From Turneriella sp. (GTDB taxonomy: Bacteria; Spirochaetota; Leptospiria; Turneriellales; Turneriellaceae), in contig CBDIID010000003.1 of the NCBI GenBank assembly GCA_965279515.1, positions 2,816,001 to 2,880,000 on the forward strand: DNA of 64,000 nt. Direction: 5' to 3'. Both the position numbers and the translations under genes were made by a program. The notes below the pieces were generated by a model. The model saw nothing but the letters and a program-made list of their open reading frames with translations, did no database searches and had not been told where the DNA came from. Of the stretch, positions 574 to 64,000 are shown piece after piece; the first letter of the stretch is position 1, and each line of letters opens with the position of its first letter.

Positions 574-1149
574 TTATTTCTTAGTGACAGTCCACTTGAA
601 ATTCGTCGTCTTTACGTCTTTCCAAGAAGCAGTTAAAGATGAGCCCTGTGAAACGCAGGTTGTACCGTTACCAACATACGTGGGGGTAAGCAGAACGAAG
701 CCAGCAGCAGCAGCGGTATATGTATATGTCTTAGGCGTATTAACATCTAACCCACTCAATGCTAAAGCCGGAGTACCGTAAATTCCGTAATCATAGATTC
801 CCGATGTGTTGCTAACTGTATCATTGAGAGAACCCGGCGTGGGCTGACCAATTAACCTGAGCTGAAGTGTAGCTGAAATAGCGCTATTTCCGCATTTACC
901 TTCCAGTTTGCCCGCGGCCATTACAAATTCATAGGTACCGGCCGCGGGGATGGCAATCTTCGCCTGACAATTATCATAGCAAGAGCCACAAATTTCGCCC
1001 GTGCTGGCAGTTTGTTCGTAAATCACTTTGTTGCCCGACATCAGGCAGGCCGGGCCTTTATCTTCAGCTTCCGTTGTTTTTGCGCATGCCCCCAGAAACA
1101 AGATGGCAAGCATACTCAAGATGAGAGGATTATTGGGGATTTTTTTCAT
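574..1149 (-). CDS. Cys-rich hypothetical lipoprotein
   Basis: MKKIPNNPLILSMLAILFLGAC signal peptide and lipobox. Start placed at ATG 1149 because TTGACC lies 28 nt upstream. Confidence 0.75.
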   Translation of the reverse strand: MKKIPNNPLILSMLAILFLGACAKTTEAEDKGPACLMSGNKVIYEQTASTGEICGSCYDNCQAKIAIPAAGTYEFVMAAGKLEGKCGNSAISATLQLRLIGQPTPGSLNDTVSNTSGIYDYGIYGTPALALSGLDVNTPKTYTYTAAAAGFVLLTPTYVGNGTTCVSQGSSLTASWKDVKTTNFKWTVTKK

Positions 1150-1387
1150 GCATCTCATTAGAAATTATCCAACAATTGGTCAATGATATTGTTAGTCAAA
1201 ATCTGACACTGTTAAAAATCCAACTACTCACCGGAAGTGTCCCGGGGAATTTGGGCTTAAATATACCTCTACGCGGGATTTAGTATCAGCGTTTACGATA
1301 AGATGGGTATTCCGTCTCCATTAGCCTGCCGCGCGCTGAAACGACTCTGTCATTGACGCCCAACTTAAATCACGGGAGCTATCCGCA

Positions 1388-2131
1388 ATGACAGCGCCCC
1401 ATACCGCCCTCACCCGCAGCCGCATTACCAGCGATCACGCGCTGATCACACCAGAAAGCCATGTGTTGCTTTCGCCGCCGGGCTGGTCGAAAGCCACCGT
1501 GGTTTATTTTATCTCGCCGCAGATGGGTGCCAACTTCACCATGTTTATGGGCGTCTTCGAAGCGGGCGGCGAAGTCAAACGCAACCTCGGCGACAATGAG
1601 ATTCTGGGTTATGTCTTAGAGGGGGATGCAGAGCTGAGCGCAAAGTCGAAATCCGCGCTGCAACCGGGTTCGTTCTTTTTTCTGCCACCGGGCACCGCAT
1701 TCAGCATCGCCGCGAAGAAACCCAGTCGGGTATTGTTTTTCGAAAAGATGTATGAACCCCTCGCGGGAGTTAATCCCCCTGCTGAAATTATTTCACACGA
1801 AAACAAAGTCACCAAAGAACCCTTTCTCGGTGACCCAGGTGCCCTTTTGCAAGTGCTCATGCCGATGGGCGCCGAGTTCGATATGGGTGTGAATATTTTT
1901 GAATTCGCCCCGGGCGGTACGTTACCGAATGTCGAGAACCACTATATGGAGCATGGGCTGTATGTTCTGCAGGGCCAGGGCGTCTACCGCCTCAGCGAAA
2001 GCTGGTACCCCGTGCAAAAAGACGATGCCATCTGGATGGCGCCGTTTTGCCTGCAATGGTTTGTGGCATCGGGAAAACAGAATACGAAATATATTTATTA
2101 CAAGGACATGAACCGTCCACCGTTGGTATAA
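1388..2131 (+). CDS. allE: (S)-ureidoglycine aminohydrolase (bicupin)
   Basis: Two cupin domains; E-N-H-YMEHGLYVLQGQGVYRL, WMAPFCLQW and C-terminal YIYYKDMNR motifs. Confidence 0.92.
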   Translation: MTAPHTALTRSRITSDHALITPESHVLLSPPGWSKATVVYFISPQMGANFTMFMGVFEAGGEVKRNLGDNEILGYVLEGDAELSAKSKSALQPGSFFFLPPGTAFSIAAKKPSRVLFFEKMYEPLAGVNPPAEIISHENKVTKEPFLGDPGALLQVLMPMGAEFDMGVNIFEFAPGGTLPNVENHYMEHGLYVLQGQGVYRLSESWYPVQKDDAIWMAPFCLQWFVASGKQNTKYIYYKDMNRPPLV

Positions 2132-2132
2132 T

Positions 2133-2291: not shown

Positions 2292-3724
2292 TTAATTTTT
2301 CGCCACGGCTTCGCCGCTTCGAGCGCAAAGGCAAGTTCAATGAGCGTGCGTTCGGCACCATGCGGCGCTTGCAGTTGCATGCCGATCGGCAGGCCATTCT
2401 TATCGGCACCCATCGGCAGCGAAATCGCCGGGCTGCCGGCAGCGTTGTTGAGCGGGGTAAAGGCGACGTAGCGCATCAGGCGCTCATAGAGCTGTTCGTA
2501 GTCCATATCGGGGTTTAAATGCCCGAGCTTCGGCACGACATGCCCCAGCACCGGTGAAAGTACCGCATCATAACCGCGCATCGCATCAGCATAGAGCTTT
2601 TGCGTCTGATTTAAACGGTAGAGCATCAGCGGTGCGCTCAGCATGCGCGCCTTAAAATAGTCTACCAACCCACGGCTAAACGGATCGAGCTTGGCGCCGT
2701 CAAAATCGCGGCTGACGACAAAACGCCCGAAAGTGCTGATCAGAAATGCCAGCATGGCCCAGTAGAGCGTGAAGTCTTCGAGAAAATTTTTACTCACAGG
2801 CAACGGCATCGGTACCAGTGTATGACCCATGGATTCGAAAATCTTCTGTGTCTCACTGAGTACCGCGCGCGTTTCCTCACAGGTGTGAGTTCCCGTAATC
2901 GAATCGACAATCACACCGATGCGCAGCTTTTTTTTCCCGGGGCCCTCGACGCGGCCAATCACGGGTAACTTAGGATTGCGGTAATAATCCTCAAGGCCGG
3001 CCATGAAGGCCGCAGTATCGCGCACGCTGCGCGTCACAACGCCTTCGCTCACGATATTGATCGGCATGGAACTCGCGGATGCATTATTGAGATGCCTGTC
3101 GCGCGTCGGTTTCAGGCCCACGAGGCCACAGCATGCGGCCGGCACGCGGATCGAACCACCGCCGTCGTTCGCGTGCGCGATCGGTACAACGCCGGCAGCG
3201 ACGAGCGCCGCCGAGCCGCCCGACGAGCCGCCGGCAGAATAATCGGTATTCCAGGGATTGCGCGTCGGGTGGTCGCTCTCAAATTCCGTCGAAGCATTGA
3301 AGCCGAATTCGGGCAACGAACTCTTGCCCAGAACGTTGAACCCCTGCGCGAGAAACTGCGCGGTAAATTTTCCATCGTCGGCCGCAATGTGCGCTTTCGC
3401 GGCCCGCGTGCCGTTGCGCGTGGGTAATCCCTTCATGTCGGCGTTGTCTTTAACAAAAGTGGGAACTCCCGCGAATATGCCCTGGCCATTGAATTTCCGC
3501 GCTGCATCCTGCGCACGTTCGAAGATAGGAAATTCGATCGCATTCAGGCTACCGTTCACCTTTTGGGCGCGCCGGATGGCAGCCTCGGTGACTTCGGTGG
3601 CAGTAATTTCACCGCGGTGGATGAGCCCGGCGAGGGCCACAGCGTCGTGTTCTGCAAGCACGTCGTTGCCAAAGGCATGGACGCGCTCTCCCAATGTTTC
3701 AGATTTCAAACGGGCAGATGGCAT
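2288..3724 (-). CDS. Amidase signature family protein
   Basis: GVPTFVKD, GGSSGGSAA and DGGGSIRVPA (Lys-Ser-Ser triad). Start placed at ATG 3724. Confidence 0.92.
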   Translation of the reverse strand: MPSARLKSETLGERVHAFGNDVLAEHDAVALAGLIHRGEITATEVTEAAIRRAQKVNGSLNAIEFPIFERAQDAARKFNGQGIFAGVPTFVKDNADMKGLPTRNGTRAAKAHIAADDGKFTAQFLAQGFNVLGKSSLPEFGFNASTEFESDHPTRNPWNTDYSAGGSSGGSAALVAAGVVPIAHANDGGGSIRVPAACCGLVGLKPTRDRHLNNASASSMPINIVSEGVVTRSVRDTAAFMAGLEDYYRNPKLPVIGRVEGPGKKKLRIGVIVDSITGTHTCEETRAVLSETQKIFESMGHTLVPMPLPVSKNFLEDFTLYWAMLAFLISTFGRFVVSRDFDGAKLDPFSRGLVDYFKARMLSAPLMLYRLNQTQKLYADAMRGYDAVLSPVLGHVVPKLGHLNPDMDYEQLYERLMRYVAFTPLNNAAGSPAISLPMGADKNGLPIGMQLQAPHGAERTLIELAFALEAAKPWRKIN

Positions 3725-3825
3725 GAGAGCGGGTGCGACGCACAAATCGCAGCGTCAACGGAGAAAGTATTCCCTGAATTGTATTGACTTAGGGTGTAAA
3801 TGCGTCTGATTGCAACCATCTATCC

Positions 3826-6497: not shown

Positions 6498-6537
6498 ATT
6501 TGTATTGGCGCGGCATGAGCCGCACTTACATGCGATT

Positions 6538-6867
6538 ATGAAAAGCATCAGCACGCACATTCTCGATATCTCACGCGGCAAGCCTGCACAGGGCGTTCAG
6601 GTTGTTCTCGAGTTTCTTGACGGAGAGTTCAAAAAGGCCGCTGAAGGTGTGACCGATGCCGACGGCCGCGTGCGCGATTGGCAATTCACCATGAAGACCG
6701 GAACCTGGCGCATCCGTTTTGAAATCGCCTCGTATTTTGAAGGCCTGAAAGAATCGTGCTTTTATCCTTACGTCGAAATCGTCTTCCAGGTGACAAATGC
6801 CGAACAGCATTACCACGTGCCCTTACTGCTCAGCGCCTACGGGTTTTCCACCTACCGCGGCAGCTGA
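6538..6867 (+). CDS. uraH: 5-hydroxyisourate hydrolase (transthyretin-like)
   Basis: ISTHILD...G.PA, TDADGR and HYHVPLLLSAYGFSTYRGS C-terminus. Confidence 0.95.
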   Translation: MKSISTHILDISRGKPAQGVQVVLEFLDGEFKKAAEGVTDADGRVRDWQFTMKTGTWRIRFEIASYFEGLKESCFYPYVEIVFQVTNAEQHYHVPLLLSAYGFSTYRGS

Positions 6868-8612: not shown

Positions 8613-8668
8613 GGATGGGCAAATGTACTATTTATTTCACACGGAGTCCGCATTTTTTTAACTACACA

Positions 8669-9385
8669 ATGCGGGCCGAGCCTGTGCACATTTCCCCGGA
8701 ATCCATTATCCGCTATCGCGACCTGTGCCGCGTCTGCAACCGCTCACGCGCGACGTGTTTCTGCAAGTATACGACTCCGCTCAGAACAAACACACGTTTT
8801 ATTATTCTCATGCATCCCAAGGAATTCAAACGCCAGCGCACCGGAACCGGGCGCGTCACACGGTTATCGCTGCTCAACTCGGAAATCATCGTGGGTGCAG
8901 AATTTGGCGCCGATGCGAAATTAAGCGCAACCCTGAATGACCCGGCCTATTTTCCGCTGTTGCTTTTTCCTGGATTACATGCCATCCATGCCGCATCGGT
9001 CGAGTTTAGTTCCATGGTCTCGAATCGTCGACCCTTAGTCGTCATTGTGGATGCGACCTGGTCGAGCGCACGCAAGATGTTAAGGCTGAGCCCCAACCTG
9101 CAACAGCTGCCGCGACTCACGTTTAGAGAGGGGGACGTTTCGAAATTTGTCATCAAGCGGCAGCCCAATGCCGTTGCCCTGTCGACGATAGAAGCCGCTT
9201 ACCGGGTGCTAGACGAATTGAATGCGAATGGTTATGAAAATCTCGGAACTAAACACGATTCCCTGATGCGGACCCTCGAAGCAATTGTGGCATTTCAGAT
9301 CAAATGCGAGGCAGATCCGAATCTACCATCGCACCGCATCAAAAAACCGCTCAAAGCCCCTGAACAAAGTCACGCAGCTCTTTAA
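8669..9385 (+). CDS. DTW-domain tRNA-uridine aminocarboxypropyltransferase (TapT-like)
   Basis: CxxC..CxC N-terminus, HPKE..TGTG, LLFP, DATW..ARKM, LSTIEA. Confidence 0.88.
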   Translation: MRAEPVHISPESIIRYRDLCRVCNRSRATCFCKYTTPLRTNTRFIILMHPKEFKRQRTGTGRVTRLSLLNSEIIVGAEFGADAKLSATLNDPAYFPLLLFPGLHAIHAASVEFSSMVSNRRPLVVIVDATWSSARKMLRLSPNLQQLPRLTFREGDVSKFVIKRQPNAVALSTIEAAYRVLDELNANGYENLGTKHDSLMRTLEAIVAFQIKCEADPNLPSHRIKKPLKAPEQSHAAL

Positions 9386-11150: not shown

Positions 11151-11879
11151 CTACGGTACCGTGTACCCAAAGGTGCGGATGGTTTTCTTCGCGGCGGGGC
11201 TCCGCAGAAACTGCATGAACTCCCTGGCCGCAGCGGTGTCTTTCAACAAGATGGCTTCCTGTGTCAGGGGTGTATAGCTATCTTGAGGAATGATAAAGCT
11301 TGAACCCGCGGAAATCTGCGAAAGGGCCACAAAACCCATCTCAGAGGCACCTGAGGCAACAAAATGGTGGGTTTGGCCGATATCCTGGCCCATGACAATG
11401 CGGCCCTGTAGTTTCTCCCAGAGTCCCACAGCGAGCAGATACTCCTTCGCTGCCTGACCATACGGCGCCACATCGGGGTTTGCGATCGCCAGGGAACGGA
11501 AATTCTGACCTTGCAGCACTTTGCCATTTGCATCCACAAAATTCCCGCGGGGGCTCCATAATACGAGTTTGCCGGTCGCATAGTGAAATCGTGTATTTTT
11601 TATGCCGAAACCTGCCGATTCGAGCAAGCGCGGATGTTTCGCGTCGGCAGCTAGAAAAACATCAAAGGGCGCTCCGTTCCTGATTTGCAGGTAGAATTTT
11701 CCGGTCGAGCCGGATATGGCGGTGAACTTGTGCTGGTATTGTTTTTTAAACCCGGGCGCCAGGGCGTTCAAGGCATCGCTAAAATTGGCTGCCACCGCAA
11801 TCCGCAGTTCCTCTGCGGCCAAGCCACCGCTCATTACGGTGAAAATGGCAATCACCGCGGTCATCCAAATCGAGCGCAT
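11151..11879 (-). CDS. modA: Molybdate ABC transporter substrate-binding protein
   Basis: IAVAANF, GSTGKFY.QIRNGAPFDVFLAAD, IANP.VAPYGQAA, GFVALSQ. Confidence 0.93.
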   Translation of the reverse strand: MRSIWMTAVIAIFTVMSGGLAAEELRIAVAANFSDALNALAPGFKKQYQHKFTAISGSTGKFYLQIRNGAPFDVFLAADAKHPRLLESAGFGIKNTRFHYATGKLVLWSPRGNFVDANGKVLQGQNFRSLAIANPDVAPYGQAAKEYLLAVGLWEKLQGRIVMGQDIGQTHHFVASGASEMGFVALSQISAGSSFIIPQDSYTPLTQEAILLKDTAAAREFMQFLRSPAAKKTIRTFGYTVP

Positions 11880-11957
11880 TTTTCCTGAATGAGCTGCAGG
11901 GTACATTGGCAACCGGATTCCTGTTTGACGTGCACATGCTTGCCGGTTTGCTGTCGT

Positions 11958-13679
11958 ATGCGACGAATACTCATCGCGGGTGTTTCGTTGCTCATCTTCG
12001 GCTGCCAGTCGTGGAACCGGTTCTGGGAAGTCGGGGCCATGGGAGGCAATGTTACGGGAGTATATTATCCTGTTACGGCCCGTCTCAATAGCATTGCAGA
12101 ATCACAGGTTATCACTAAAGGGCAGGCGCGTTACGCTTTTGAAAAAACCATTCTAACCGGTTCGGGCTTCAGCATCGATGTGGAGAATACGGCTTTCGCG
12201 CAAACCTGCAGCGTCGATAATTCCCGCGGCATAGCCGCCACGGGAAATAATGGCAATAATATCTTCTGCACCAATGCATTCTACGGCTTTTACGGAACCG
12301 CCGGCAGCGAACAGTTTAATGGTATAGCCGCAACTTCTGATAGCGGCACCGTGGTCGCTGGCAGCACCACCAGTGACATTGTCTTCACTTCAGCTGCACC
12401 CGCAAGTCCCGTGGGTGCTGCGCATTCGGGCGGGGGCGTCGGCGACATTTTTGTGATGAAACTCAACAACATTGGTGAAGTGGAATGGTATAACTACTTT
12501 GGGACGACGGCGGTCATAGAAAGCGCGGCGGGAATTGCCGCGACACCCGACGGGGGTTTTGTTGTGATCGGCAGCGCAGCCAATGGTTTTATTTCTCCCA
12601 TGCATGGCCTGAATCCGGTCTGCGCGCATAGCGCTGGTGGCACGGGTGATATTATCGTGATCAAACTGAGCCCGCAGGGTGCCCTGCAATGGTATACCTT
12701 TCTGGGCGCGGCGGCGAGCGGAGAGAGTGCCGTCGCGATTACTGTGGCGGGTGATGGCAGCATCTACACCCTGGGTAACGGCAACTCAGCGAACCTTTGC
12801 GGGGGTACGGTAAACCCGATCAATGTACAGACAGGTACGGGCGATATGAACGTGGTGAAACTGGACAGTAACGGCAATATCGTGTTTTACGAATATATTG
12901 GCGGCAATGGCGGTGACACACCCCTGGCCATCACCGCCACACCCGACAACGGCTTTATTGTCGGTGGTAGCGTGCAGTCATCCACAGGAATGACGAATGC
13001 TTCGAACATGCCTGGCCCATGCCTGAATAGCTTCGCAGGCAATCTCGACGGTATCATCGTACGCGTAAACTCCTCAGGTACAGGCCTGTGGTGCTTCTAC
13101 CTGGGCGAGGCCGCTGGTATTGACCAGGTCACTGGTGTCCGAATCGCCAGCGATAACAGTATTATCGTTGCGGGGCAATCCAGCGCGGCACTGAATTTAG
13201 TTTCCTGGTCAGTACAACCGACCCCGCTGCTTGCGCACTCAGGTAGCACCGATATCTTCGTCACAAAACTTTCGCTGAGTGGCGTACCCCAATGGCTCAC
13301 CTACCTGGGCAGCGCCGCGGCTGAAACAGCGGGGCAAATTGCTGCCACTTACGATGGCGGCCTCGTGGTCATAGGGCAGGCGCCGACGAGTTTCGCCTCC
13401 ATGGGGGGATTAACCCCGTTGAACAACCATGCGGGTGGTACCGACTGGATGCAGACGAAACTGAGTACCACAGGTGCTTTGCAGTGGTTTCAGTTTCTCG
13501 GTTCAGGTGTGGCTGATACTGCCTTAAGCGTCACCGAAACTGCCGACCGGAGTATTGCGGTGAGCGGGTCTTTCAGCGCGACAGTGCCGACCCTCAAAGG
13601 CCTCACACCGAAAAACGCCTATGCCGGTGCCGGTACGGACGCAACGGTCATCAAGCTTAACCCCAGCGGTGGCATCTAA
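11958..13679 (+). CDS. Surface lipoprotein with SBBP-like beta-propeller repeats
   Basis: MRRILIAGVSLLIFGC lipobox; repeated D(I/M).V.KL...G...W..YLG and IAAT.DGG..V.G units. Confidence 0.8.
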   Translation: MRRILIAGVSLLIFGCQSWNRFWEVGAMGGNVTGVYYPVTARLNSIAESQVITKGQARYAFEKTILTGSGFSIDVENTAFAQTCSVDNSRGIAATGNNGNNIFCTNAFYGFYGTAGSEQFNGIAATSDSGTVVAGSTTSDIVFTSAAPASPVGAAHSGGGVGDIFVMKLNNIGEVEWYNYFGTTAVIESAAGIAATPDGGFVVIGSAANGFISPMHGLNPVCAHSAGGTGDIIVIKLSPQGALQWYTFLGAAASGESAVAITVAGDGSIYTLGNGNSANLCGGTVNPINVQTGTGDMNVVKLDSNGNIVFYEYIGGNGGDTPLAITATPDNGFIVGGSVQSSTGMTNASNMPGPCLNSFAGNLDGIIVRVNSSGTGLWCFYLGEAAGIDQVTGVRIASDNSIIVAGQSSAALNLVSWSVQPTPLLAHSGSTDIFVTKLSLSGVPQWLTYLGSAAAETAGQIAATYDGGLVVIGQAPTSFASMGGLTPLNNHAGGTDWMQTKLSTTGALQWFQFLGSGVADTALSVTETADRSIAVSGSFSATVPTLKGLTPKNAYAGAGTDATVIKLNPSGGI

Positions 13680-16401
13680 GCCTGCCCCGGAATTTTCTGC
13701 ACCATCAGGTAGCGCCAGAGAGAACTGAAAACCACGAATACTCCCAGTGCTGCAAAAATCCAGCGGAACTCAGGCCAGGCCAGGGGTTGCGTGTGCAGGA
13801 AAAGGTTGAGCTGGGGAATGTAGATGATCGCCAGCATTGCCACCAGCGAGATCAGAATTCCCAAAAACAGCCGGGGGTTCGAGAATGTATAACGACTGAA
13901 AATATTCTCGTTCGTGCGCAGATAAAAGATACTGACAAATTGCGTCAGCACGATGGTCACAAATGTGGATGTCAGGCCCGTTTCCCAGGCGCCGGGTTTG
14001 CCCTTGAGGTTGTGAAAGACCATGAGGCAGACTGCGGTGGCCAGGGCCCCGCGCATGATGCCCGAGACCAGTACGGTATAGATCCGCGTTTTATCGAGCA
14101 ACGCACCTTTCTGCCGCGGCGGCCGCTGCATCTCTCGCGGGTCTGCCGGATCATACGTCAGCATGAGCAGCGGAATCATTTCACCCACAAGATCCACCAG
14201 CAGAATCTGGACGGGTAGAATAATCGGTGGGATGCAAAAGGGATCAAAGCAAAGCCTGCAAGCACGCAGAGCAATTCTGTGAAGTTCGAAGAAAGCGTGG
14301 CGATGACATTGGTCTGCAGGTTGCGGAAAATTGTGCGCCCCTCACGGATCGCAGCGACGATCGTGGCAAAACTGTTGTCGAGCAGCACGAGGCTTGCTGC
14401 CTCTTGCGCCACCTTGCTGCCATTGTGGCCCATCGCCACGCCGATATCGGCGCGCTTCAGGCTCAAGGTATCGTTGACCCCGTCGCCCGTTACGGACACG
14501 ACATCGCCGCGTTTCTGCAGCGTGCCCACGATGCGCAGCTTTTCATCCGGTGAGACGCGCGAGAAAACAACCGAGCGGCTGGCCAAAACCTCTGAAAGCG
14601 CGGCATCATCCATCGCGACAAGTTTGTCGCGGTTGATAACCTGGATCGGTTGCGGCAGGCCATCTTGCATGCCGATCGCAATCGCGATGGTGCGCGCCGT
14701 CGCTTCATGGTCACCTGTAATCATCATCGTGCGGATGCCCGCCGTGTGCGCGGCGGCGACGGCGGCCTTCACCTCTTCGCGCGGCGGATCGATCATCGTG
14801 ACAAAACCGGAAAATACCAGGTTCGATTCGGCAGTTTGCTGCGTCAGCTCTTCATCGGCTGAAAGATCGCGGTAAGCGATCGCAATGACGCGCAACGCCT
14901 GTGCAGAATAGGCGCGCGAAACAGCGAGCAGCTCTTCGCGGTCGCGCTCCGCCATAGGTTTGACACTGCCGTCGACACATTGCCCGGCACACAGCGGCAG
15001 CAGCGATTCAATCGAACCCTTCACGAACGAGATGCGTTTGCCGCGGTGCTCGCGGATAATGGAAATTCTTTTGCGTTCAGAATCGAAGGGGAAAAGACGG
15101 ATTCTCGGATACGCGGCCAGAACCTCTTCGGGTTTAAAGCCCGCCTTCATGAGCAAGGTCGCGAACGCCGCTTCTGTGGGATCTCCCAGCGCGTAATAGT
15201 CGTTGTGGAATTCATCGGGCGCATTGACGCTGCCGGTGGAAGAGAGAAACCCCGCAAGAAAAAGAATCTTCTGATCACCCAGGGTGTTGGGATTCATCAC
15301 GCGCCCGGACTCCTCGAAAATTTCGCCGCCCGGATTGTACCCGGTGCCTGTGATCTTATAATTTTCACCCTCAAAAAAAGCAGAGGTGATTGTCATCTGG
15401 TTCTTCGTGACGGTACCCGTCTTGTCGGTGGCGATGACCGTCGCGGCGCCCAATGCCTCGACCGAAGAGAGGCGTTTGACAACCGCCTTTTTTCGCGCCA
15501 GACGCGCCACCCCGAGGGATAATCCCATCGAAATTTGCGCCGGCAGGCCCTCGGGCACCATCGCCGCCGCCACACTCACGGCAAAGACCAGCGCTGTCTT
15601 GAGGGGTTCGTCGCGCCAGATCTGGATCAGAAAAAGCAACACGGCAAGGGAAAGCGAAAAGCGCGTGATATAGACTCCCAGCCGGTTGAGCTCCTTTTGT
15701 AGGGGAGAGACTTCGCGGTTCATACTCTCTGACGTGCTCGCAATCTTACCGAGCTCGGTGTGATCTCCCGTTTCACACACGACCGCCGTCGCTTCGCCGC
15801 GCGCCAGTGAAGTGCCGAAGAAGACGTAGTTGAGCCGGTCGGGCAGGGGGATATCCGCCTGCGTCTCAAAGCCGGGATCTTTTTGCGCGGGGACAGATTC
15901 GCCCGAAAGCGCAAACTCATTCGCCATGAGGCTCTCTGCCTCGATCAGCCGGCAGTCGGCGGGTACCCCGTCGCCCTCTTGCAGAAAAATAATATCGCCC
16001 GGCACCAGCGACGATGCCGGCACTTCGATACGGTGGCCGTTTCTGACCGCAATGGCGTTTTCACTGACCATGCTGCCCAGGCGCGCGACAATATTCTCGG
16101 ATTTCCAGTCCTGCAAAAAGCCGACCACGGCGTTTACGACGACGATCACCATCAGTACGATGCCGTCGTTGACCGAGCCCAGGATAAAAGAAATCACCGC
16201 CGCGATAAAAAGCAGGACTACCAGCAGGTTGGCAAACTGCTCGATCAGCACCTGGAGCATGGTGCGCCCCGGGCGGGCTGTAATCACGTTGGGTCCGTGG
16301 CTGGCGAGACGGCGCTGGGCCTCGTCGGAAGCAAGGCCGGTAAGCGAATTTGTCTGGAAGGCGGAAATGACGGCGGCAAGGGCGCCCTGGTAATTGGCCA
16401 T
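13676..16401 (-). pseudogene. Cation-transporting P-type ATPase (P2 type) split by a -1 frameshift near 14236 (pseudogene, sequencing error or programmed shift)
   Basis: SGES, VPEGLP, DKTGT, GDPTE, MITGD and TGDGVND in 14176..16401; the membrane domain continues in the -1 frame (IPPIILPVQILLVDLVGEMIP...) to 13676. Confidence 0.8.
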
Positions 16402-16485
16402 ATTAAAAAAGCGGCGCTAAGAGCTTGCACGTCAACTCAGAAAAGTGCTTGCGGTGAGCTTTAAAAAAAAGGAGTTTGAGATATT

Positions 16486-18637: not shown

Positions 18638-18784
18638 AGAAATCTCCTATATAAGAAATACCAAAGGTTGCTCTTTTCTTCTCACTTTATCGCTGGAAAT
18701 TCTTGCGTCGAAAATATCACAAGCAAGCAAACGATACAGAGTTGATTCCGATTTCCGGTATGTCTAAGGCGGCGACCTTGACCC

Positions 18785-25006: not shown

Positions 25007-25053
25007 GGGTTCGAATGAGAAAGACAGAGTGTCGGTCAAAAACAAATCGCACC

Positions 25054-25551: not shown

Positions 25552-25591
25552 TCGGCTTGACCGACACCGCGGGTCTGCATAAGGAGGCTCC

Positions 25592-39284: not shown

Positions 39285-39292
39285 CTGGGGTC

Positions 39293-39331
39293 GTTATTAT
39301 ATATTTGCGCGCAGCGCAAATATATAATAAC
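39293..39331. repeat. Perfect 18-bp inverted repeat (terminator or operator)
   Basis: GTTATTATATATTTGCGC-GCA-GCGCAAATATATAATAAC. Confidence 0.8.
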
Positions 39332-40796: not shown

Positions 40797-40835
40797 GGAG
40801 AGGCCACGGGGGGGCATGAACTCAGTAAGTAAAGT

Positions 40836-42960: not shown

Positions 42961-43046
42961 AGGGTGAAATGGCTTTTTTAGACATGCCGTCAACGAGAGC
43001 ACCTGTTACTCCTTGACGCCCTCTTTTCCGTTTAAACTCAAACTCT

Positions 43047-46169: not shown

Positions 46170-46209
46170 CGGTTTCAAGGTGCGGCCCGCGCACAAGCGT
46201 CAAGGCAAA

Positions 46210-46956: not shown

Positions 46957-47645
46957 GGGTTAGCGGGATTCGCGCTCTTTTTTTCGAGAGTATCCGTGAG
47001 GTTGAGCTTGTATTCTTCGTTGTCCATGGTGGCGGTGAACACGAGTGTCTCGCCGACCATTTTTGCTTTAAGGTCTGTCATCATGGGTTTTTTGATATCG
47101 AGGATAACAATCTTCGCGACCGGGCCTTCGAAAACGATTTCATATTTACCCAACTGGGTACGGGCACGGTTACTGCCGAAATCCAGTGCGCCACCGGGAT
47201 AAAGCGTCACGTAGTTCGGTGTCAGCGCTCCCTGTACCGTCGCGGCCTCCCAGCGGCCAATCACGACCTGGCGCAATTTTTTTTCCATCTTCTCATTGAG
47301 GCCCTGCACATCGCCTTCGCTTGATTCTATCGCCAGATGCGCACCGTATACCCACCCGGTGAGCCCGGTGCTGTTTGTCACTTTATACCAATAGGCATTG
47401 AGCTGACCGATCTGCACGGGTTCGGCGCTGCGCTGAACGATTCTTACCTGCTCGCCGCGCGAGAGGTGGGCGAGTTCGACGGCTGTGGTATTGGGGGCAA
47501 TGCGCATTTTGAGGTCTGCGGCGCTGACGGTCGTGGTAGCGGGCAGGGGCGCATCGGTCGGGTCTGCTTTTTTCTTACAGGCCGAAAGCGCGACGAATAT
47601 TCCGATGAGTATGAGCTGAACTTGACGCCTTTGTGCTTTCCGCAT
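46953..47645 (-). CDS. SH3-domain lipoprotein
   Basis: LSAC lipobox; LKMRIAP...L..GE.V...WYKV...GLTGWVYG (SH3b). Confidence 0.8.
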   Translation of the reverse strand: MRKAQRRQVQLILIGIFVALSACKKKADPTDAPLPATTTVSAADLKMRIAPNTTAVELAHLSRGEQVRIVQRSAEPVQIGQLNAYWYKVTNSTGLTGWVYGAHLAIESSEGDVQGLNEKMEKKLRQVVIGRWEAATVQGALTPNYVTLYPGGALDFGSNRARTQLGKYEIVFEGPVAKIVILDIKKPMMTDLKAKMVGETLVFTATMDNEEYKLNLTDTLEKKSANPANP

Positions 47646-47705
47646 GGCGTGCGATTTATTTATGAGAGGCCGGGTCAACTCATTTGGCCTCCGGTATTTT
47701 CCCCG

Positions 47706-52486: not shown

Positions 52487-52539
52487 CATTTGTTCGCCAT
52501 TGGTTTGACTTCCCATGTGCCGAAGCCGATAATCCCCTT

Positions 52540-53352
52540 ATGTCGAGACCCGCCCTCGTAGAAAAGACAGTTTCGCGCCTCACACAAAAAAGGCTAGTGC
52601 GTTTTCAGATCAATGCTCTCACGAAGCAGGGCCGCAGGCAGCTGCAGCAGGTACTGACGGAATTCTTTGAAAAAGAGAATCTCAACAAGATGCATGTGCT
52701 GGCGATCCACTATGCGATCGTGGAAATTGTTTTTAATGCGCTGAAGGCAAATCTGAAATTTGCCGCCTTCCGCGAAGAGATCAAAAAACAACTCAACCGT
52801 TTTAAGATTACGGAAATCGAAGACCTGCTCCAGGTTATCATTGAAGAGCGCACACTGCGCGAATTCGCGGCAACGCGCATCATGCCCGATGTTTTAAAGA
52901 AACAGGTACAGAAAATCTTCGATCTCGAAGAAAAATACCGTACTGGTATGGGGCAGAAGCTCACCGGCGAGCAGGTCGAGATGCTTAAAAAGTTCCGCAT
53001 GCTCATCCGTGCGATCGACGCCGATGTTACTATGGAGATACTGCATTCGGGTGATGATATTCGTATCACGGTAACCAACAAGGTACCTATGCTGCAGAGA
53101 GACCTCGAACGCATCGACCAGAGCCGCCGCCGCCATGCCGAGCTCTATAAAGAAGGCAGAGCCGGCGATTTTTTCAGTTATGATAATTTAGACACCACGG
53201 AATCCGCGGGTTTTGGTATTGCGATGGTAGACCAGGGTTTTTATAAATTGGGTCTGGATCCGTTTAAACAAATGAACATCGAGACTCGCAACCGCGAGAC
53301 ACAGGTCACGCTGGCGTATCCCCGCCGGGCGTTGCTGATCCCGGCGGTATAG
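52540..53352 (+). CDS. Hypothetical protein with split GHKL/HATPase-like motifs
   Basis: EIVFNALKAN (N-box-like) and ESAGFGIAMV (G-box-like); TTGACT-N17-GATAAT promoter ends 6 nt before the ATG. Confidence 0.6.
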   Translation: MSRPALVEKTVSRLTQKRLVRFQINALTKQGRRQLQQVLTEFFEKENLNKMHVLAIHYAIVEIVFNALKANLKFAAFREEIKKQLNRFKITEIEDLLQVIIEERTLREFAATRIMPDVLKKQVQKIFDLEEKYRTGMGQKLTGEQVEMLKKFRMLIRAIDADVTMEILHSGDDIRITVTNKVPMLQRDLERIDQSRRRHAELYKEGRAGDFFSYDNLDTTESAGFGIAMVDQGFYKLGLDPFKQMNIETRNRETQVTLAYPRRALLIPAV

Positions 53353-53389: not shown

Positions 53390-55042
53390 TTAGTTCCGGA
53401 CTTCGGCCGCGGCCTCTTTGGCGCCTTTAGAATACGAAAACATGATAATCACCAGTGCAAGCGTCGCATACGCAGCGGCGATGCTGTAAGGTGTCGGCCC
53501 CGCGGGGTTCAGTTTCACTGCCCAGGGCAGGTACATATCACCGTCAATCTTGATCGAGTGCATGAGACCAAAGAGCGAAAGAAACGCGCCCACAAAAAGA
53601 TATCCTGCTGATTGGTAGAATTTGCGGTCGATGAGTTTCGCGGTAAAGGCGCCCCAGATCATCGCGGTGATAATAAAACCGTTGCCGAGCGCGATGATGG
53701 TAAACCACGATTCCTGGAAAGCGCTGCCGAAGTAGTCGAGCGTGGGTTTGATTTTCGCTGCGGTTTCAGCAGAGACGCCGCTGAGTACGCCAAACAGGCC
53801 CTGGATCTGTGCCACGAGGCCAATCATCTTGATTTTCGCGAGGTAAGGCATCGATGGCAGGATTGCCATGGTCACTGCCGTAGCATGCCGCTTGGGTGTG
53901 GAGTGGTATGACTGCTCGACAATGTCGAGACCGACGAAGATCAGAATCGGCGCAAGAGCTGCCTGGGGCAGAACCTGCGCGAGGAAGCCGATGAAACCAA
54001 AGATACCACCGAGACCAATAAAGAGACCCGTGCCCAGTGTGTATGCTGCCCGCCCACCCATGGCCTTATACGCCGGATGACCGATGTAGGGTGTCGATTG
54101 CGCCACACCGCCCGTGATGCCGGCGGCGAGGGTGGCCACCGCTTCGGCGAGCAGAATGCTGCTGGTGCGGTATGAATCACCGGCAATACGTGCGCTGGCT
54201 GTGACGTTGATGCCGCCGATGACCGTGAGCAGGGCGAAGGGAATCGCGATGGGCAAATAGACGAGGGCTTCTCTAAAACCGCCGATGAATTCGAGCGTGG
54301 GAATAGGGAAGGCGATGATGAATTTGGGTGCGATTTCGGGCGCGTGCACGACCTTCAGCACTACCAGCATGTAATAAATAATTGCGCCGCCGATGACCGA
54401 GAGAAAGACGCTGGGGAGATTAAATGGCAGGCGTATCTTGGCGACGAGCGCATAGATAATAATACCGAGCGCAACCATGCCGGCGATGGGAGTGCCGAAG
54501 ACATGCTCGAGCGGCAGAAGACCCAGGAGCGCGATACCGACACCGGCAAGGGAACCGAGTAAGCCGGCTTCGGGAACAAGCTTTTCGACATAATAGCCTA
54601 CGAACGAAAGAAAGAATTTTACCACGCCGATGATGATCATCGTCGCCATGCCGACTTTCCATGCGGCGAGGCCCGCAGCATTCGGGTCTAACCCGCCGGC
54701 TTTCGCCGCCAGGAAGGCAGGGCCGATGACGGCGAAGGCGATGCCGATGGTGGATGGCGAATCGAGGCCCAGTGGCATGGCCGTGACATTCGGGTTCTGC
54801 GTCCGCTTGGCGAGGCGGAAGGCCATAATAGTATAGATGACGTCACCGACGAGAACGCCAAAGGCGGTGCCAGGGAACATTTTTCCGTAAACGAGGTCTG
54901 CGGGAAATCCGAAGACGAGTATCAGAATCTGTGCGAGAAAGACGAGATTGGTGACGTTGTCGAGCATCAGCCCGAAGAAGGCGTTGAGGTCGCCTATTCC
55001 CATCCAACGGTATTTAAAGGTAGAGCTTTCCATGGTGGCCAT
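53390..55042 (-). CDS. NCS2/AzgA-like nucleobase permease
   Basis: Many TMs; GDLNAFFGL.LDN, VTAMPLGLD.PS, TPYIGHPAYKAMGGRAAY. Confidence 0.8.
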   Translation of the reverse strand: MATMESSTFKYRWMGIGDLNAFFGLMLDNVTNLVFLAQILILVFGFPADLVYGKMFPGTAFGVLVGDVIYTIMAFRLAKRTQNPNVTAMPLGLDSPSTIGIAFAVIGPAFLAAKAGGLDPNAAGLAAWKVGMATMIIIGVVKFFLSFVGYYVEKLVPEAGLLGSLAGVGIALLGLLPLEHVFGTPIAGMVALGIIIYALVAKIRLPFNLPSVFLSVIGGAIIYYMLVVLKVVHAPEIAPKFIIAFPIPTLEFIGGFREALVYLPIAIPFALLTVIGGINVTASARIAGDSYRTSSILLAEAVATLAAGITGGVAQSTPYIGHPAYKAMGGRAAYTLGTGLFIGLGGIFGFIGFLAQVLPQAALAPILIFVGLDIVEQSYHSTPKRHATAVTMAILPSMPYLAKIKMIGLVAQIQGLFGVLSGVSAETAAKIKPTLDYFGSAFQESWFTIIALGNGFIITAMIWGAFTAKLIDRKFYQSAGYLFVGAFLSLFGLMHSIKIDGDMYLPWAVKLNPAGPTPYSIAAAYATLALVIIMFSYSKGAKEAAAEVRN

Positions 55043-55097
55043 GGGATAGCAAGTAGAGCGCCAAGGAGCGGGTCAAGGAAATTTGACCCGCTTTGTG

Positions 55098-56159: not shown

Positions 56160-56307
56160 GGACGGAAGGTATCATGGATGGTTTGTTTTGTCCAAGTTTA
56201 CACGCAAACATTGGACAAAATATTCTTCGGTATTATGTCGCCTCTTTTTTGCGTATACTCTGTTAAAGAATGTGTTGACCCCCAAAACGCCAACCCCACT
56301 GAAGATA

Positions 56308-57138
56308 ATGTTCAAATTCCGTTGGATTTACACTTTATTGCTTTCGGCGCCTGTTTTCGCAGCGCCTGCCCCAACCCCCGCTAAACTACCGAACTTTTAC
56401 AATGAGACGATGAATTTTCGTATTGTCTGGAAAGGCATACCCGCCGGCGACGTCACAATGCGCACGCGCACAGACGGCGATAAATTCATCAACATCAATG
56501 CCCGCGTGAACTCGCTGGCTGCCGTTCATGGCATCTATTACGTGCAGGGCGTTTTCGCCAGCAAGTGGAATCACATCACCAAGACTCCCGTGATTGCTTA
56601 CGAAGAAGCCTTTCAGGGCGATGCCTACCAGCGCCGCAAGTTTCGTTTTGGCGCAGGCAAGGTGAATGTCGACAAGAACGAAAAAAAATTCCAGGAACAT
56701 AGCTATCCGCACACCGACACATTGAAAGGTGAATGGAAAGAAAATTATGATGTGAATACCAAGGGCGGTTATCAGGATCTCATGGGTGCGTTCTATTATG
56801 TTCGAAGCACCGGGCGCGTTCCCCGCGTCGGTGAAGTGCTGAGGGTGCCTGTGTTGCCTGCCGGCTCACGCCGGACCCTGGTTCTGAAAGTTCTCGGCCG
56901 CGAAACGCGCAACGATATCCCGTTCTTTGGCACACGCGAGATTATCCATGTGAAATCCGCGCTGGTCGACGATGTGAATAACAAAACGCAGGCGGGCAGT
57001 AACCTGTTCTTTAATACGCAGAGCCAGATTGAGATGTGGATTACCGCCGACGCGGATTTTGTCCCGGTCAAAATCTGGACCGAGGTGCCATATTTAGGCA
57101 CGGCGTATATTCTGCTTGAGAATTACACACAACCGTAA
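56308..57138 (+). CDS. DUF3108-like exported protein
   Basis: Signal peptide; E.M.F.I.W.GIPAG, D.MGAFYYVR, MWITAD...VPVKI. Confidence 0.7.
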   Translation: MFKFRWIYTLLLSAPVFAAPAPTPAKLPNFYNETMNFRIVWKGIPAGDVTMRTRTDGDKFININARVNSLAAVHGIYYVQGVFASKWNHITKTPVIAYEEAFQGDAYQRRKFRFGAGKVNVDKNEKKFQEHSYPHTDTLKGEWKENYDVNTKGGYQDLMGAFYYVRSTGRVPRVGEVLRVPVLPAGSRRTLVLKVLGRETRNDIPFFGTREIIHVKSALVDDVNNKTQAGSNLFFNTQSQIEMWITADADFVPVKIWTEVPYLGTAYILLENYTQP

Positions 57139-61480: not shown

Positions 61481-62342
61481 GGCTGCGCCGTTGCCGCTCG
61501 GCATTGAGTTTTTTCAGCGTTGCCTCGGCCATATAACTCGACCGTACAAAGGGACCGATTTCCGAGGCGAGGAATCCGCGCGTATCAGCGCTCTGTTCGA
61601 GTGCGGCAAATTCTGACGCGGAATAATTTTTCACCACCGGCGCCTGTTCGGGCGACGGGCGCAGGTATTGGCCGATCGAGACGATATCGATCGCTGCGGA
61701 TTTCATGTCGTCGAGCAGCGTTTCAACCTCTTCGGCTGTTTCACCGAGGCCCAGCATGAAGGCGCTCTTACGGATAATCTGCGGGTGCGCTGATTCGAAG
61801 AAGCGGAAAAACTGCAGTGACCGGTGGTAATCCGCCTGGGGGCGAATCGCCGGCGATAGGCGCGCCACGGTTTCCATGTTATGCGCAATGACTGCAGGCC
61901 CTGCTTCGGCGATGATATTCAGATGTTCGGCGCGGCCGTGAAAATCAGGCACCAGCAGCTCGACGGTGATACCGAGGCCGTTCAGGCTGCGCGTGATGCG
62001 CGCGAAATGGTGCGCGAGGCCCGCTTCGTCGTCGTCGCGCGCCACAGAAGTGATGACGAGGTATTTATATTTGCCATCGACCGCTGTGCGCACGATGTCA
62101 TCGTGTTCTTTCTCTGCGATCGACGCCAGCGCAACGGGTTTTGCGGTCGCAATATGGCAGAATTTGCAGGCGCGCGTGCATTCGCGGCCGCCGATTAGAA
62201 AGGTTGCAATACCCAGCGACGAACATTCATGGCGGTTGGGGCAGCGCGACTCTTCGCAGACGGTATGGACGTTTTTATAGGCAAGCAGGTTAACCCCGCC
62301 CTCAAAATTCCAGGGGATACGTTTGGCAATTGTCGGCGTCAT
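61473..62342 (-). CDS. lipA: Lipoyl synthase
   Basis: TVCEESRCPNRHEC, CTRACKFC, HNMETV, GQYLRP, VRSSY. Confidence 0.93.
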   Translation of the reverse strand: MTPTIAKRIPWNFEGGVNLLAYKNVHTVCEESRCPNRHECSSLGIATFLIGGRECTRACKFCHIATAKPVALASIAEKEHDDIVRTAVDGKYKYLVITSVARDDDEAGLAHHFARITRSLNGLGITVELLVPDFHGRAEHLNIIAEAGPAVIAHNMETVARLSPAIRPQADYHRSLQFFRFFESAHPQIIRKSAFMLGLGETAEEVETLLDDMKSAAIDIVSIGQYLRPSPEQAPVVKNYSASEFAALEQSADTRGFLASEIGPFVRSSYMAEATLKKLNAERQRRSHG

Positions 62343-63694
62343 GGTGTGCGTGAGGCTGCGTACAAGTACGCCGACTCCACCTGATCTGCCAAACCAATTC
62401 CGGAAAAGGCCCAGCCGGCAAAATGCACACCCTGGTGTTTTTCGAGCATGCCCTGGATCTCTTTTTTCCACTCACCGTAACCCGGGGCATAACGCGGAAT
62501 ACCGGGGTTATGGCGGAATACCTTGCTCCACAGCGGCTTGGTTCTAAATTTCAAAATACGCCCCAGCGATTCTTCGGCCAGGTCTGCGAGTTCGCCGTCT
62601 TTGAACAGGTCGCTGTCACCGGAGATCATGGTCTTCGTGAGAAACTGGCCTTCGGCCGCGCGCCCGGGAAAAACATTCGAGGCGAAGATCGTGCCGAGGA
62701 TAGCCGCGCGCTCTTTGCGCGGCACGAGAAAGCCGTAACCACCGGGTGAGAAATCCTTTTTGTTCCACGCGGCATAGACCACGTTGATCGGGGAGTATTT
62801 CAGCTCGCCGACCTTGCGTGAGAGCTCTTTGTCGTGGTCGCGCCAGATATATGAGAGATCTTCGCTGCCGATCGTGAAGACCACTTCGTCAAACGCCGCA
62901 TAGGGTTTGGCTTTCGAGCTTAAAACAGTGCGGCCGGATGCATCGCGATGGATACGCGCGATTTTATCTTTCACTGTTTCGACACCCATCTCGCCGAGGC
63001 GCGCGGTGAGCGCATTCGCTAATGTGCTCAGGCCGCCTTTGAAGCTGTAGATCCCCTTTTCAAAACTGACCCCGCCCAGTGCCTTGTCCCAGAATAATCT
63101 TCTCTCAGCGCCGTATTCCTTGAGGGCTGTTTTGAGCTTCGCGGTTTCGGTGATTTTGCGGTAAAGCCCGGGGAAAATGGATGAAAACTCGAGATCTTCG
63201 GCTTCACTGCCGAAAATGCCGCGTGCCATGGGTGACGCCAAATATTCCGCCGCGCTGAATCCCAATACATTACGCGCCGCGTCGAAAAGCGTAATCGTCG
63301 GCCAGAGTGAGAATTTTTTGCGCATCGCGAAGAAAATCTTGAACTTCTCGGGGAAAAACAGCAGCGAAGTGGTGATCAATCCGCCCGGCGATTTGGGTGC
63401 CGCGACTAAATAGCCGTCTTTCAGCACAAAACGTTTCGCGCTTTTTTTGTCTTCAAACAACAGCTCACCTTTCAGCCCCAGTTCTTGCGCTAATTGGTTA
63501 AAGAGGCCGGTGCGGTCGAGGTACGAATCGGGCCCGGGTTCAAGCTGTGCGCCCTCATGTATCTGCGTGGCGATATTGCCGCCGGGATTGCCCGGTTCAA
63601 AGAGACTGACGTCAGCATCGGGGAATTTCTTCTTCAGGTAGTATGCGTGGGTCAGGCCGGATATTCCGCCGCCAACGACTGCAATTCGGGCCAT
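62339..63694 (-). CDS. hemG: Protoporphyrinogen/coproporphyrinogen oxidase (HemY/HemG flavoprotein)
   Basis: VVGGGISGL, E.GPDSY, GYGFLVP, GIP.Y..G, GIGLAD. Confidence 0.88.
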   Translation of the reverse strand: MARIAVVGGGISGLTHAYYLKKKFPDADVSLFEPGNPGGNIATQIHEGAQLEPGPDSYLDRTGLFNQLAQELGLKGELLFEDKKSAKRFVLKDGYLVAAPKSPGGLITTSLLFFPEKFKIFFAMRKKFSLWPTITLFDAARNVLGFSAAEYLASPMARGIFGSEAEDLEFSSIFPGLYRKITETAKLKTALKEYGAERRLFWDKALGGVSFEKGIYSFKGGLSTLANALTARLGEMGVETVKDKIARIHRDASGRTVLSSKAKPYAAFDEVVFTIGSEDLSYIWRDHDKELSRKVGELKYSPINVVYAAWNKKDFSPGGYGFLVPRKERAAILGTIFASNVFPGRAAEGQFLTKTMISGDSDLFKDGELADLAEESLGRILKFRTKPLWSKVFRHNPGIPRYAPGYGEWKKEIQGMLEKHQGVHFAGWAFSGIGLADQVESAYLYAASRTP

Positions 63695-63791
63695 ACGTTG
63701 TGGCTTCGAAATTCGCACACCCTGACAATGAAAAAGCCATGGAAAACCAAAAATAGCTTTACAGAAAATAATGCAAATGGGGGGTTCAAAT

Positions 63792-64000
63792 ATGCTGCCC
63801 GCTACGGTCCGAGAAATTGCGGTAACCCCGATGGGGTTCGCCGCTGTGGTGAAACCCGAGTTTAAAGATAAGATTATTCCTATCTTTATCGGGCCATCGG
63901 AAGCCTATGCCATCTCAACCGTCTTACAAAATGAAAAGATGGAGCGTCCCGTCGGCGCCGATCTCATGCGCGCGCTGATCGAATCGTCAGGCGCGGGCCT
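63792..64000 (+). CDS. Bifunctional nuclease (DUF151) family protein; runs off the right edge; not in the ORF track
   Basis: MLPATVREIAVTPMGFAAVVKPEFKDKIIPIFIGPSEAYAISTVLQNEKMERPVGADLM (PIFIG..EA.AI...RP...DL motif); alternative ATG at 63771. Confidence 0.85.
   Translation, partial: MLPATVREIAVTPMGFAAVVKPEFKDKIIPIFIGPSEAYAISTVLQNEKMERPVGADLMRALIESSGAG

Follow-up and report, generated by a model that had tools for sequence, protein, structure and literature searches.

Genomes rich in leaderless genes, as known from Actinobacteria and Deinococcus-Thermus, are defined by a −10 box located approximately 10 nucleotides (nt) before the start codon (PMC6028130 and PMC3160421, in the sections on such genomes). 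Here, a 64,000-nt stretch of the genome of a free-living spirochaete, Turneriella sp. (genome G000, 4.9 Mb, 99.99% complete; contig C3, positions 2816001–2880000; referred to as the window) was analyzed together with the complete genome and its relatives for a TTGAC-type promoter element at a fixed distance before start codons. About a quarter to a third of the operon-starting genes in Turneriella and its relatives carry this strong −35 signal 33–41 bases before the start codon. The closest described counterparts are the GeneMarkS-2 group C, or TA-led, genomes, in which a quarter to half of the operons begin at the start codon, Shine–Dalgarno sites are found internally, and ATG is preferred. 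Turneriella likewise has a large share of first genes at leaderless distance and Shine–Dalgarno sites at internal genes. The marker of TA-led genomes is, however, TAnnnT approximately 10 nt before the start, whereas such a Pribnow box is nearly absent at first-in-operon starts of G000, and the −35 box marks the start.

A weak −10 region has been described in several other settings. CarD-activated sigma-70 promoters of alphaproteobacteria combine TTG at −35, a degenerate −10 region with TA at −12/−11, and a 17-bp spacer with canonical sigma contacts and a CarD wedge tryptophan (parts of PMC7703639 and PMC8407463). In Rhodobacter, CarD offsets a missing −7T, and −11A is described as essential in both E. 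coli and Rhodobacter (PMC7703639, same sections). In the sigma-70-dependent Pr promoter of Pseudomonas putida CF600, the −10 consensus is matched at only one position, and the spacer contains an additional element at −15; PMC3526299 describes the type as highly restricted, with none found in P. putida KT2440. The Z-element (core AACCT, −22 to −18), which lies in the −24 to −18 zone of the spacer and is read by the beta-prime zipper, strengthens promoters whose −10 box is weak (PMC3173786).

Results

A distance peak confined to operon-starting genes

Throughout, the distance d is measured between the hexamer's first T and the start codon's first base, and offsets are counted from the same T; d 33–35 corresponds to the gap of 27–29 nt given by a previous sequence-only reading of the window, which had proposed leaderless, −35-dominant transcription. 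The genome-wide positional count of the motif revealed a sharp TTGAC peak at d 33–35. When every genomic TTGAC (n = 7392) was compared with downstream ATG codons opening at least 150 codons, a count that is free of start choice, 81, 92, and 37 were found at d 33, 34, and 35 versus approximately 6 per position elsewhere, amounting to 210 versus approximately 18 expected. A tail of 14–26 per position followed at d 36–41, and only 1, 2, and 7 were counted at d 30–32. Counts of three control words (GTCAA, TGTAC, and TTCAG) stayed flat across distances. With the starts of a gene caller that is blind to the motif, 98, 107, and 39 TTGAC were obtained at d 33, 34, and 35. These starts agreed with homology-fixed ones in 116 of 142 genes, so that the shares of genes given below are probably underestimates.

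The signal depended on operon position. Among the 142 genes with homology-fixed starts, exact TTGAC at d 33–35 occurred in 12 of 83 first-in-operon genes (loose match 24, control 2), versus 1 of 59 operon-internal genes (loose match 3). A mixture model applied to 2466 first-in-operon genes assigned 33.6% to the −35 class and 12.9% to the Shine–Dalgarno class; the former comprised approximately 570 genes at d 33–35 (approximately 23%) and approximately 200 at d 36–41 (8%). With the matrix fixed, the share at d 33–35 was largest for divergent first genes (29.4% of 1231) and decreased through spaced same-strand genes (17.2% of 1259) and genes with gaps of 11–35 nt (10.3% of 298) to tightly linked genes (0.6% of 1085). 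In five controls, among them shifted, reversed, shuffled, and internal-ATG sets, it was 0–0.5%. The TTGAC observation is thus confirmed as real and genome-wide. The 23% of first genes at leaderless distance compare with 7% leaderless in Methylorubrum (PMC9320726) and 171 leaderless starts in Sinorhizobium (PMC3616915).

Composition of the element

The composition was derived from the mixture model; further counts were made on 504 high-scoring sites, with 1422 low-scoring genes for comparison. The consensus comprises an A/T tract (offsets −7 to −5), TT(G/T)AC(G), TGT(C/T)T at offsets 9–13, a vestigial nAnnnT at 22–27, and a short G+C-rich stretch. The information amounted to 1.8 bits for the A/T tract with flanks, 6.0 bits for TT(G/T)AC(G>A>C), 0.95 bits for offsets 9–17, and 0.65 bits for offsets 22–28; in the strongest promoter class an A tract follows TGT(C/T)T. 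Neither the A/T tract nor the spacer motif had been noticed in the sequence-only reading, and the hexamer, previously written as TTGAC[C/G/T], holds as a motif with a different sixth base: genome-wide, this is G in 49%, A in 27%, C in 18%, and T in 7%, and TTTAC is a common variant. The hexamer, TT(G/T)AC(G/A/C), is thereby of the canonical TTGACA-like −35 type.

The −10 region had been called poorly conserved. There is indeed no usual −10 box, but the region is not blank. T at offset 22 (−12T) was found in 20% of sites, which is below background, A at offset 23 (−11A) in 45%, T at offset 27 (−7T) in 49%, and G at offset 28 in 43%. TAnnnT at spacers of 15, 16, 17, and 18 bp was present in 8, 27, 7, and 0 sites, respectively (42 of 504 in total), and the TG of an extended −10 box was not enriched (18–31 of the 504). 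The residual A, T, and G keep offsets 23, 27, and 28 for d 33–37, which indicates a spacer of 16 bp, rather than the canonical 17 bp, and parts that are fixed to the −35 box and not to the ATG.

These sites could in principle be ordinary sigma-70 promoters, with real leaderless genes but no special promoter type, at which the −10 box appears faint owing to base composition or to the selection of sites by a perfect −35 box. This would fit the residual A (62% at d 33) and T (57%) at the −11 and −7 places and the TAnnnT retained at some sites, such as several RNase P promoters and 39 sites in the genome; A23 and T27 are also anticorrelated (odds ratio 0.48), which is compensation-like but partly a selection effect. 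However, among 2041 unselected first genes without a Shine–Dalgarno site, the top positional words were TTGAC, TTTAC, and TGTCT, whereas TAnnnT reached only 46 and 44 at 11–12 nt versus a background of approximately 27. As these words are of the −35 type, the −35 dominance is not an artifact of picking sites on the −35 box. In addition to the −12T frequency below background, the part of the TTGAC excess made up by sites with TAnnnT was only 16% for G000 and 9% for G015, versus 45–105% for 8 of the 10 tested spirochaetes outside the order that have such an excess, most of which thus keep a normal −10 box (background not subtracted from the TAnnnT counts). We therefore regard ordinary promoters as an unlikely explanation.

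The closest described promoters differ from the element in several positions. It shares TTG, a degenerate −10 region, canonical sigma contacts, and the CarD wedge tryptophan with the alphaproteobacterial promoters, as these are described in the cited parts; unlike them, it has −12T at or below background and −11A in fewer than half of the sites rather than −12T/−11A kept with −7T lost, a 16-bp spacer, and the added TGT(C/T)T. Unlike Pr, the Turneriella type occurs genome-wide, tRNA genes included, with its extra element at approximately −25 to −20. TGT(C/T)T lies 2–3 bases further upstream than the Z-element as reported and is fixed to the −35 box; the beta-prime zipper motif is intact in Turneriella, and recognition by the zipper is putative.

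The spacer motif raises the alternative that a dedicated DNA-binding activator, or an insert in RpoD, reads TTGAC-N4-TGTC and recruits polymerase in the manner of T4 MotA or PhoB at −35. All 42 genomic occurrences of TTGAC-N4-TGTC[AT] are intergenic; TTGAC-N4-TGTCT was counted 25–38 times in each of 14 genomes of the genus, versus 0–7 for the reversed pattern, with 2–22 in the rest of the order and 0–10 in 27 Leptospiraceae-like genomes. The motif also resembles the inverted repeat TTGACA-N3-TGTCAA, and a 60-residue insert that is predicted to fold is present in RpoD of 28 of 28 aligned order members and absent from 12 outgroup sequences. Against this stands that C occupies offset 12 of TTTAC sites 43 times and A only 3 times, and that at offset 13, of 215 cases, 109 are T and 28 are A; that TGT(C/T) is present in only 120 of 678 high-scoring sites; that the hexamer is the natural target of conserved region 4.2; and that the insert is located in the flexible linker between regions 1.1 and 1.2, with no clear DNA-binding fold (best Z 4.8). 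A dedicated reader is thus very unlikely. A palindromic site of a dimeric regulator was rejected because the half sites show no complementary covariation, and so was a bidirectional promoter with TGTC as reverse −35 box, as an opposite-strand start lies at the right distance in only 4 of 72 sites.

Hits to TTGAC-N5-TGTC were set aside, since most derive from one repeat family. Approximately 41 copies of a long, hairpin-rich, integron-cassette-like repeat are found between small genes of contig C3 (at approximately 95–170, 3734–3803, and, immediately upstream of the window, 2805–2807 kb), and each holds TTGACG-N4-TGTCA, close to the promoter consensus. No tyrosine recombinase of G000 scored above the integron-integrase cut-off.

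Stable RNA genes and the predicted position of the transcription start

The first tRNA genes of many clusters are preceded by TTGACG-nnn-TGTC(T/A)(A/C)AAA without a clear −10 box, and exact TTGAC within 90 nt of 39 tRNA genes gave 9 hits, all 39–86 nt upstream and most followed by TGT. Both rRNA operons have TTGACG-nnn-TGTT. Such use at rRNA and tRNA genes is that of a housekeeping promoter. Of 29 RNase P RNA loci in the order, 10 have a −35-like hexamer (fixed pattern) 32–35 nt upstream of the modelled 5′ end, with G000 at 34 nt; at the remaining loci, the model start is shifted or a pattern match is absent at that place. Signal recognition particle RNA, 6S RNA, and transfer-messenger RNA were not found in G000 with the Rfam small-SRP and 6S models and ARAGORN, and may be divergent. 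Start codons almost never lie closer than 33 nt, which provides a lower bound for the transcription start (+1), and the first helix of RNase P RNA, which must be transcribed, provides an upper bound; we infer that +1 would be bracketed at approximately 33–35 nt from the first T of the hexamer. That the element is a promoter is nearly certain.

Several biases agree with a putative transcription start on the A of ATG. A pyrimidine precedes the start codon in 376 of 504 high-scoring versus 830 of 1422 low-scoring genes; start codons are ATG 443, GTG 60, and TTG 1 in the former versus ATG 1082, GTG 227, and TTG 113 in the latter; and a Shine–Dalgarno site is present in 21 of 504 versus 257 of 1422. 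The second codon begins with C or G in 314 of the 504 high-scoring genes, and low-scoring genes favor A (485 of 1422). The distance peak and its confinement to operon-starting genes, the avoidance of Shine–Dalgarno sites, the rarity of TTG starts, and the calibration on RNase P RNA and tRNA genes all support the proposal of leaderless, −35-dominant transcription, and a leaderless start is likely. The view that sigma-70 geometry places the start at the start codon stands in outline, with a distance that is 1–2 nt shorter than the textbook value in keeping with the 16-bp spacer; the textbook value is 35 (17-bp spacer, start 7 bp past the −10 box; PMC12641261, section 17), and the main peak is at 33–34.

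We also considered a +1 several bases ahead of the ATG, which would give short-leader messages free of Shine–Dalgarno sites, or a second sigma-70-type factor as the reader of some of these promoters. The approximately 200-gene tail at 36–41 nt would suit short leaders, and a 323-residue sigma factor with a region 4.2 similar to that of RpoD is encoded (G000:C3:4775036–4775239). The tail fits short leaders, but the main peak does not: the mixture model placed almost no genes closer than 33 (1, 1, and 7 at d 30–32), and the pyrimidine–A step lies on the ATG itself. The rRNA and tRNA promoters, which are normally read by the primary sigma factor, share the layout, which speaks against the second sigma factor. 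As an account of the whole set, either version is highly improbable.

Promoter sites in the window

The 14 exact TTGAC sites reported in the window are all present with the gaps given, and the earlier estimate of well below one gene by chance is borne out by 94 TTGAC on both window strands, from which approximately 0.1–0.2 hits would be expected (three positions, approximately 60 genes). Profile matches agree with the starts of allE, sucD, ndk, pdhB, and the ATPase being fixed by the protein; for sucD and pdhB, residue 1 matches model position 1, and the other three are also backed. All nine near-consensus hexamers were found 27–29 nt from a start, six with a posterior of 0.83–1.0 in the genome-trained mixture model, the others with 0.52 (39284), 0.48 (63792, plus-strand ATG), and 0.07 (56159). 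Three further sites, at 18785 (plus) and at 33590 and 40796 (both minus), are new. The hexamer at 25592 exists, but AGGAGG right before the ATG makes this gene probably Shine–Dalgarno-led. The sites, with model posterior or score, are the following (names of uraH, DTW, modA, vapB, and hemG are putative labels taken from the sequence-only reading).

1147..1183, minus strand, TTGACC (1183–1178), 34 nt before ATG 1149; posterior 0.96
1353..1390, plus strand, TTGACG, 35 nt before ATG 1388, ureidoglycine aminohydrolase (allE); posterior 0.99
3722..3758, minus strand, TTGACG, 34 nt before ATG 3724, amidase; posterior 0.99
6505..6540, plus strand, TTGGCG, 33 nt before ATG 6538, putative uraH; posterior 0.91
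8636..8671, plus strand, TTCACA, 33 nt before ATG 8669, putative DTW gene; posterior 0.92
11877..11912, minus strand, TTGCCA, 33 nt before ATG 11879, putative modA, back to back with the 11958 promoter; posterior 0.83
11925..11960, plus strand, TTGACG, 33 nt before ATG 11958; posterior 0.87
16399..16435, minus strand, TTGACG, 34 nt before ATG 16401, P-type ATPase; posterior 0.75
18752..18787, plus strand, TTTCCG-nnn-TGTCT, 33 nt before ATG 18785; 15.5 bits, posterior 1.0
25004..25039, minus strand, TTGACC, 33 nt before GTG 25006; posterior 0.99
25557..25594, plus strand, TTGACC, 35 nt before ATG 25592, doubtful member; posterior 0.79
27113..27150, minus strand, TTTACG, 35 nt before ATG 27115; posterior 0.88
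33588..33624, minus strand, GTGACG, 34 nt before ATG 33590; posterior 0.98
39282..39320, minus strand, weak hexamer, 35–36 nt before ATG 39284; posterior 0.52
40794..40833, minus strand, TTTACT, 37 nt before ATG 40796, small sigma-70-family factor of extracytoplasmic-function (ECF) size, short-leader class; posterior 0.99
42958..42993, minus strand, full-type TTGACG-GCA-TGTCT-AAAA, 33 nt before ATG 42960, ndk; 13.6 bits
43013..43049, plus strand, TTGACG, 34 nt before ATG 43047, sucD, kept in genus relatives while the sequence further upstream changes; 16.7 bits
44491..44528, minus strand, TAGACT with canonical-looking TATACT, 35 nt before ATG 44493, putative vapB; posterior 0.92
46167..46203, minus strand, TTGACG, 34 nt before ATG 46169, pdhB; posterior 0.89
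47643..47678, minus strand, TTGACC, 33 nt before ATG 47645; posterior 0.99
52505..52542, plus strand, TTGACT, 17-bp spacer, GATAAT, 35 nt before ATG 52540; posterior 0.98
55040..55076, minus strand, TTGACC, 34 nt before ATG 55042; posterior 1.0
56275..56310, plus strand, TTGACC, 33 nt before ATG 56308, DUF3108 protein; posterior 0.94
63692..63728, minus strand, TTGTCA-GGG-TGTGC, 34 nt before ATG 63694, putative hemG; posterior 1.0
63758..63794, plus strand, TTTACA, 34 nt before ATG 63792, uncertain; posterior 0.48

The divergent gap between ndk and sucD measures 86 nt (42960–43047) and holds two back-to-back −35 boxes 19 nt apart. No Rfam match was obtained within the window.

Translation initiation and the sucD locus

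Shine–Dalgarno sites are present in 324 of 1215 linked genes of G000, with an AGGAG peak 10–12 nt before the ATG. The anti-Shine–Dalgarno sequence is intact, and a loss of ribosomal protein bS21 was ruled out, as bS21 is present in 61 of 61 genomes. Together, these findings indicate that both initiation modes coexist.

In the genus, sucD is split from sucC. Among 12 relatives read (genera g1 and g2), 11 have TTGACG at d 33–34 before sucD and no Shine–Dalgarno site, and the twelfth has TTTACC at d 38. Conservation starts approximately 42 nt upstream, the sequence beyond differs, and the upstream neighbor varies within the genus. In the other order genomes read (17), such a site is missing and sucD directly follows a conserved coding sequence, which we take to be sucC, mostly with a purine-rich, Shine–Dalgarno-like site.

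Distribution among the spirochaetes

For the genomes of the order, the ratio of TTGAC-N28–29-ATG to TTGAC-N19–20-ATG was used, and for 298 genomes from elsewhere in the phylum, gaps of 28–30 versus 19–21; a shifted-gap control was used in all cross-genome comparisons, as a reversed-pattern control was dropped because some genomes showed a 3–4-fold excess at any gap. Related genomes in these counts are kin and not independent. The ratio was 1.68–2.20 in all 14 genomes of the genus; of the 34 genomes in the order, 32 had a ratio of 1.2 or more and 24 one of 1.5 or more, and the two without an excess (G027 and G032) had 1.07. The 298 genomes outside the order had a median of 1.08, with 3 reaching 1.5 and 19 reaching 1.3. 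Sites with TAnnnT accounted for 15–33% of the excess at gaps 28–29 in 11 further order genomes, and for 54% of the excess at gaps 28–30 in G021. In the sequence stretches fetched, TAnnnT was found at 0 of 12 sites of G015 versus 7 of 7 sites of G096, a genome of spirochaete family f20. The lineage-wide promoter variant is real.

Outside the order, four genomes of family f20 (G096, G144, G184, and G231) contain dozens of canonical TTGACA-N16/17-TATAAT promoters ending 5–6 nt before the ATG, many of them nearly identical; these represent ordinary leaderless genes in another spirochaete family. Two genomes, G271 (family f8) and G294 (family f22), have an excess at leaderless distance with few TAnnnT (24% and 19%, respectively) and are possible independent cases of a weak −10 box.

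The transcriptome of L. interrogans, from the same class as Turneriella, resembles the present case in its approximately 440 messages with leaders below 10 nt; unlike here, no sigma-70 motif was found there (PMC5243855), and the median TTGAC ratio of 61 Leptospiraceae-like genomes is 1.07, with G271 at 1.61. In the Leptospiraceae-like genomes G271, G049, and G036, tRNA promoters and those at leaderless distance often have (C/T/A)ATGGT or ATGGA at the −10 place. The motif that escaped detection in L. interrogans may be of this kind.

RpoD and the transcription machinery

The change predicted for RpoD regions 2.4 and 4.2 is not in the base-reading residues. RpoD gave an ungapped match to 613-residue RpoD chains, and these residues are canonical, with W433, W434, Q437, T440, R441, R584, E585, and Q589 conserved (for their roles in −10 and −35 contacts, see the corresponding parts of PMC8407463). 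Order-specific differences lie at E. coli position 445, where 32 of 33 genomes have E, and at position 454, where all 33 have S or G (D445E, V454S/G), whereas D445 and V454 are kept in 5 of 5 Leptospiraceae-like genomes and nearly all more distant spirochaete records. Both R451 and the beta-prime zipper are no more than 5 Å away from D445 (bioRxiv 10.1101/2023.02.08.523653). In family f3, whose TTGAC signal is the weakest, RpoD of some members (among L182, L174, L180, and L181) carries T432A, T440A, and R448K/A around region 2.4.

The 60-residue insert (L146:3028–3222, minus strand) consists of two helix-GY repeats and is predicted to fold (pLDDT 90). It matched no Pfam family, its atlas hits reached at most 0.86, and no Foldseek match was obtained at E <0.001; a likeness to death domains (best VIA-align Z 4.8) was not trusted. 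The order-specific RpoD features may be taken as leads only. CarD is present, with a tryptophan aligned to the conserved wedge tryptophan of solved CarD chains.

Discussion

The findings probably reflect a −35 box of the housekeeping promoter of this lineage that is likely read by RpoD, with transcription starting 33–35 bases from the first T of the hexamer and approximately 570 genes being leaderless. In such a mechanism, sigma region 4 bound to the −35 box would be the main factor placing the polymerase, assisted by the A/T tract, which is UP-element-like, and by the spacer motif near the contact zone of the beta-prime zipper. The fixed distance from the −35 box to the active site would set +1, and ribosomes would load on the 5′-terminal AUG, while operon-internal and some highly expressed genes would keep Shine–Dalgarno sites. 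DNA opening without a proper −10 box may be helped by CarD and by the order-specific substitutions D445E and V454S/G, which adjoin the spacer-contacting surface of RpoD, an idea that we hold with some doubt. A more far-reaching version, in which the order moved recognition almost wholly off the −10 box and an RpoD rebuilt by the two substitutions and the 60-residue domain reads the composite A/T tract-TTGACG-TGTCT and opens DNA at a set distance with few demands on sequence, as an archaea-like "upstream box plus ruler" for a largely leaderless transcriptome that −10-based surveys would not see, is rather doubtful.

Several points weigh against this account of RpoD-read, −35-placed leaderless transcription. 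The −11A is present in only 45% of the sites, which the CarD idea does not fully account for, and the main peak at 33–34 needs a geometry shorter than the textbook 35. Start positions at the ATG are predictions from sequence, and the mixture model was trained on the same genes that were scored. The RpoD changes and the insert are also present in G027 and G032, which have no TTGAC excess, and G271 has an excess without them; hence, these changes are neither sufficient nor necessary. Finally, no alteration was found in the beta-prime zipper and zinc-binding domain, which almost match their counterparts from a Leptospiraceae-like genome.

A literature search, thin on subscription journals, turned up nothing on the promoters of Turneriella or on leaderless genomes marked by a −35 box. 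Zheng et al. (2011) examined 20 nt upstream in bacteria, and GeneMarkS-2 group C needs a box at approximately 10 nt (PMC3160421 and PMC6028130), so that the Turneriella pattern would not register with either. Turneriella was not found in six supplements of PMC6028130, whose genome-group table may bear on the novelty.

The −10 box, and −11A above all, has been held near-indispensable in housekeeping promoters, and promoters lacking it have been called highly restricted (PMC3526299, in the passages cited above). Hundreds of promoters without a −10 box, those of tRNA genes included, represent a natural test case for DNA opening and for the roles of CarD and the spacer. They also expose a blind spot: two large leaderless surveys seek a −10 box near the start, so that such genomes go uncounted and their start codons are prone to misannotation. 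The motif can fix the starts of several hundred genes per genome across the order.

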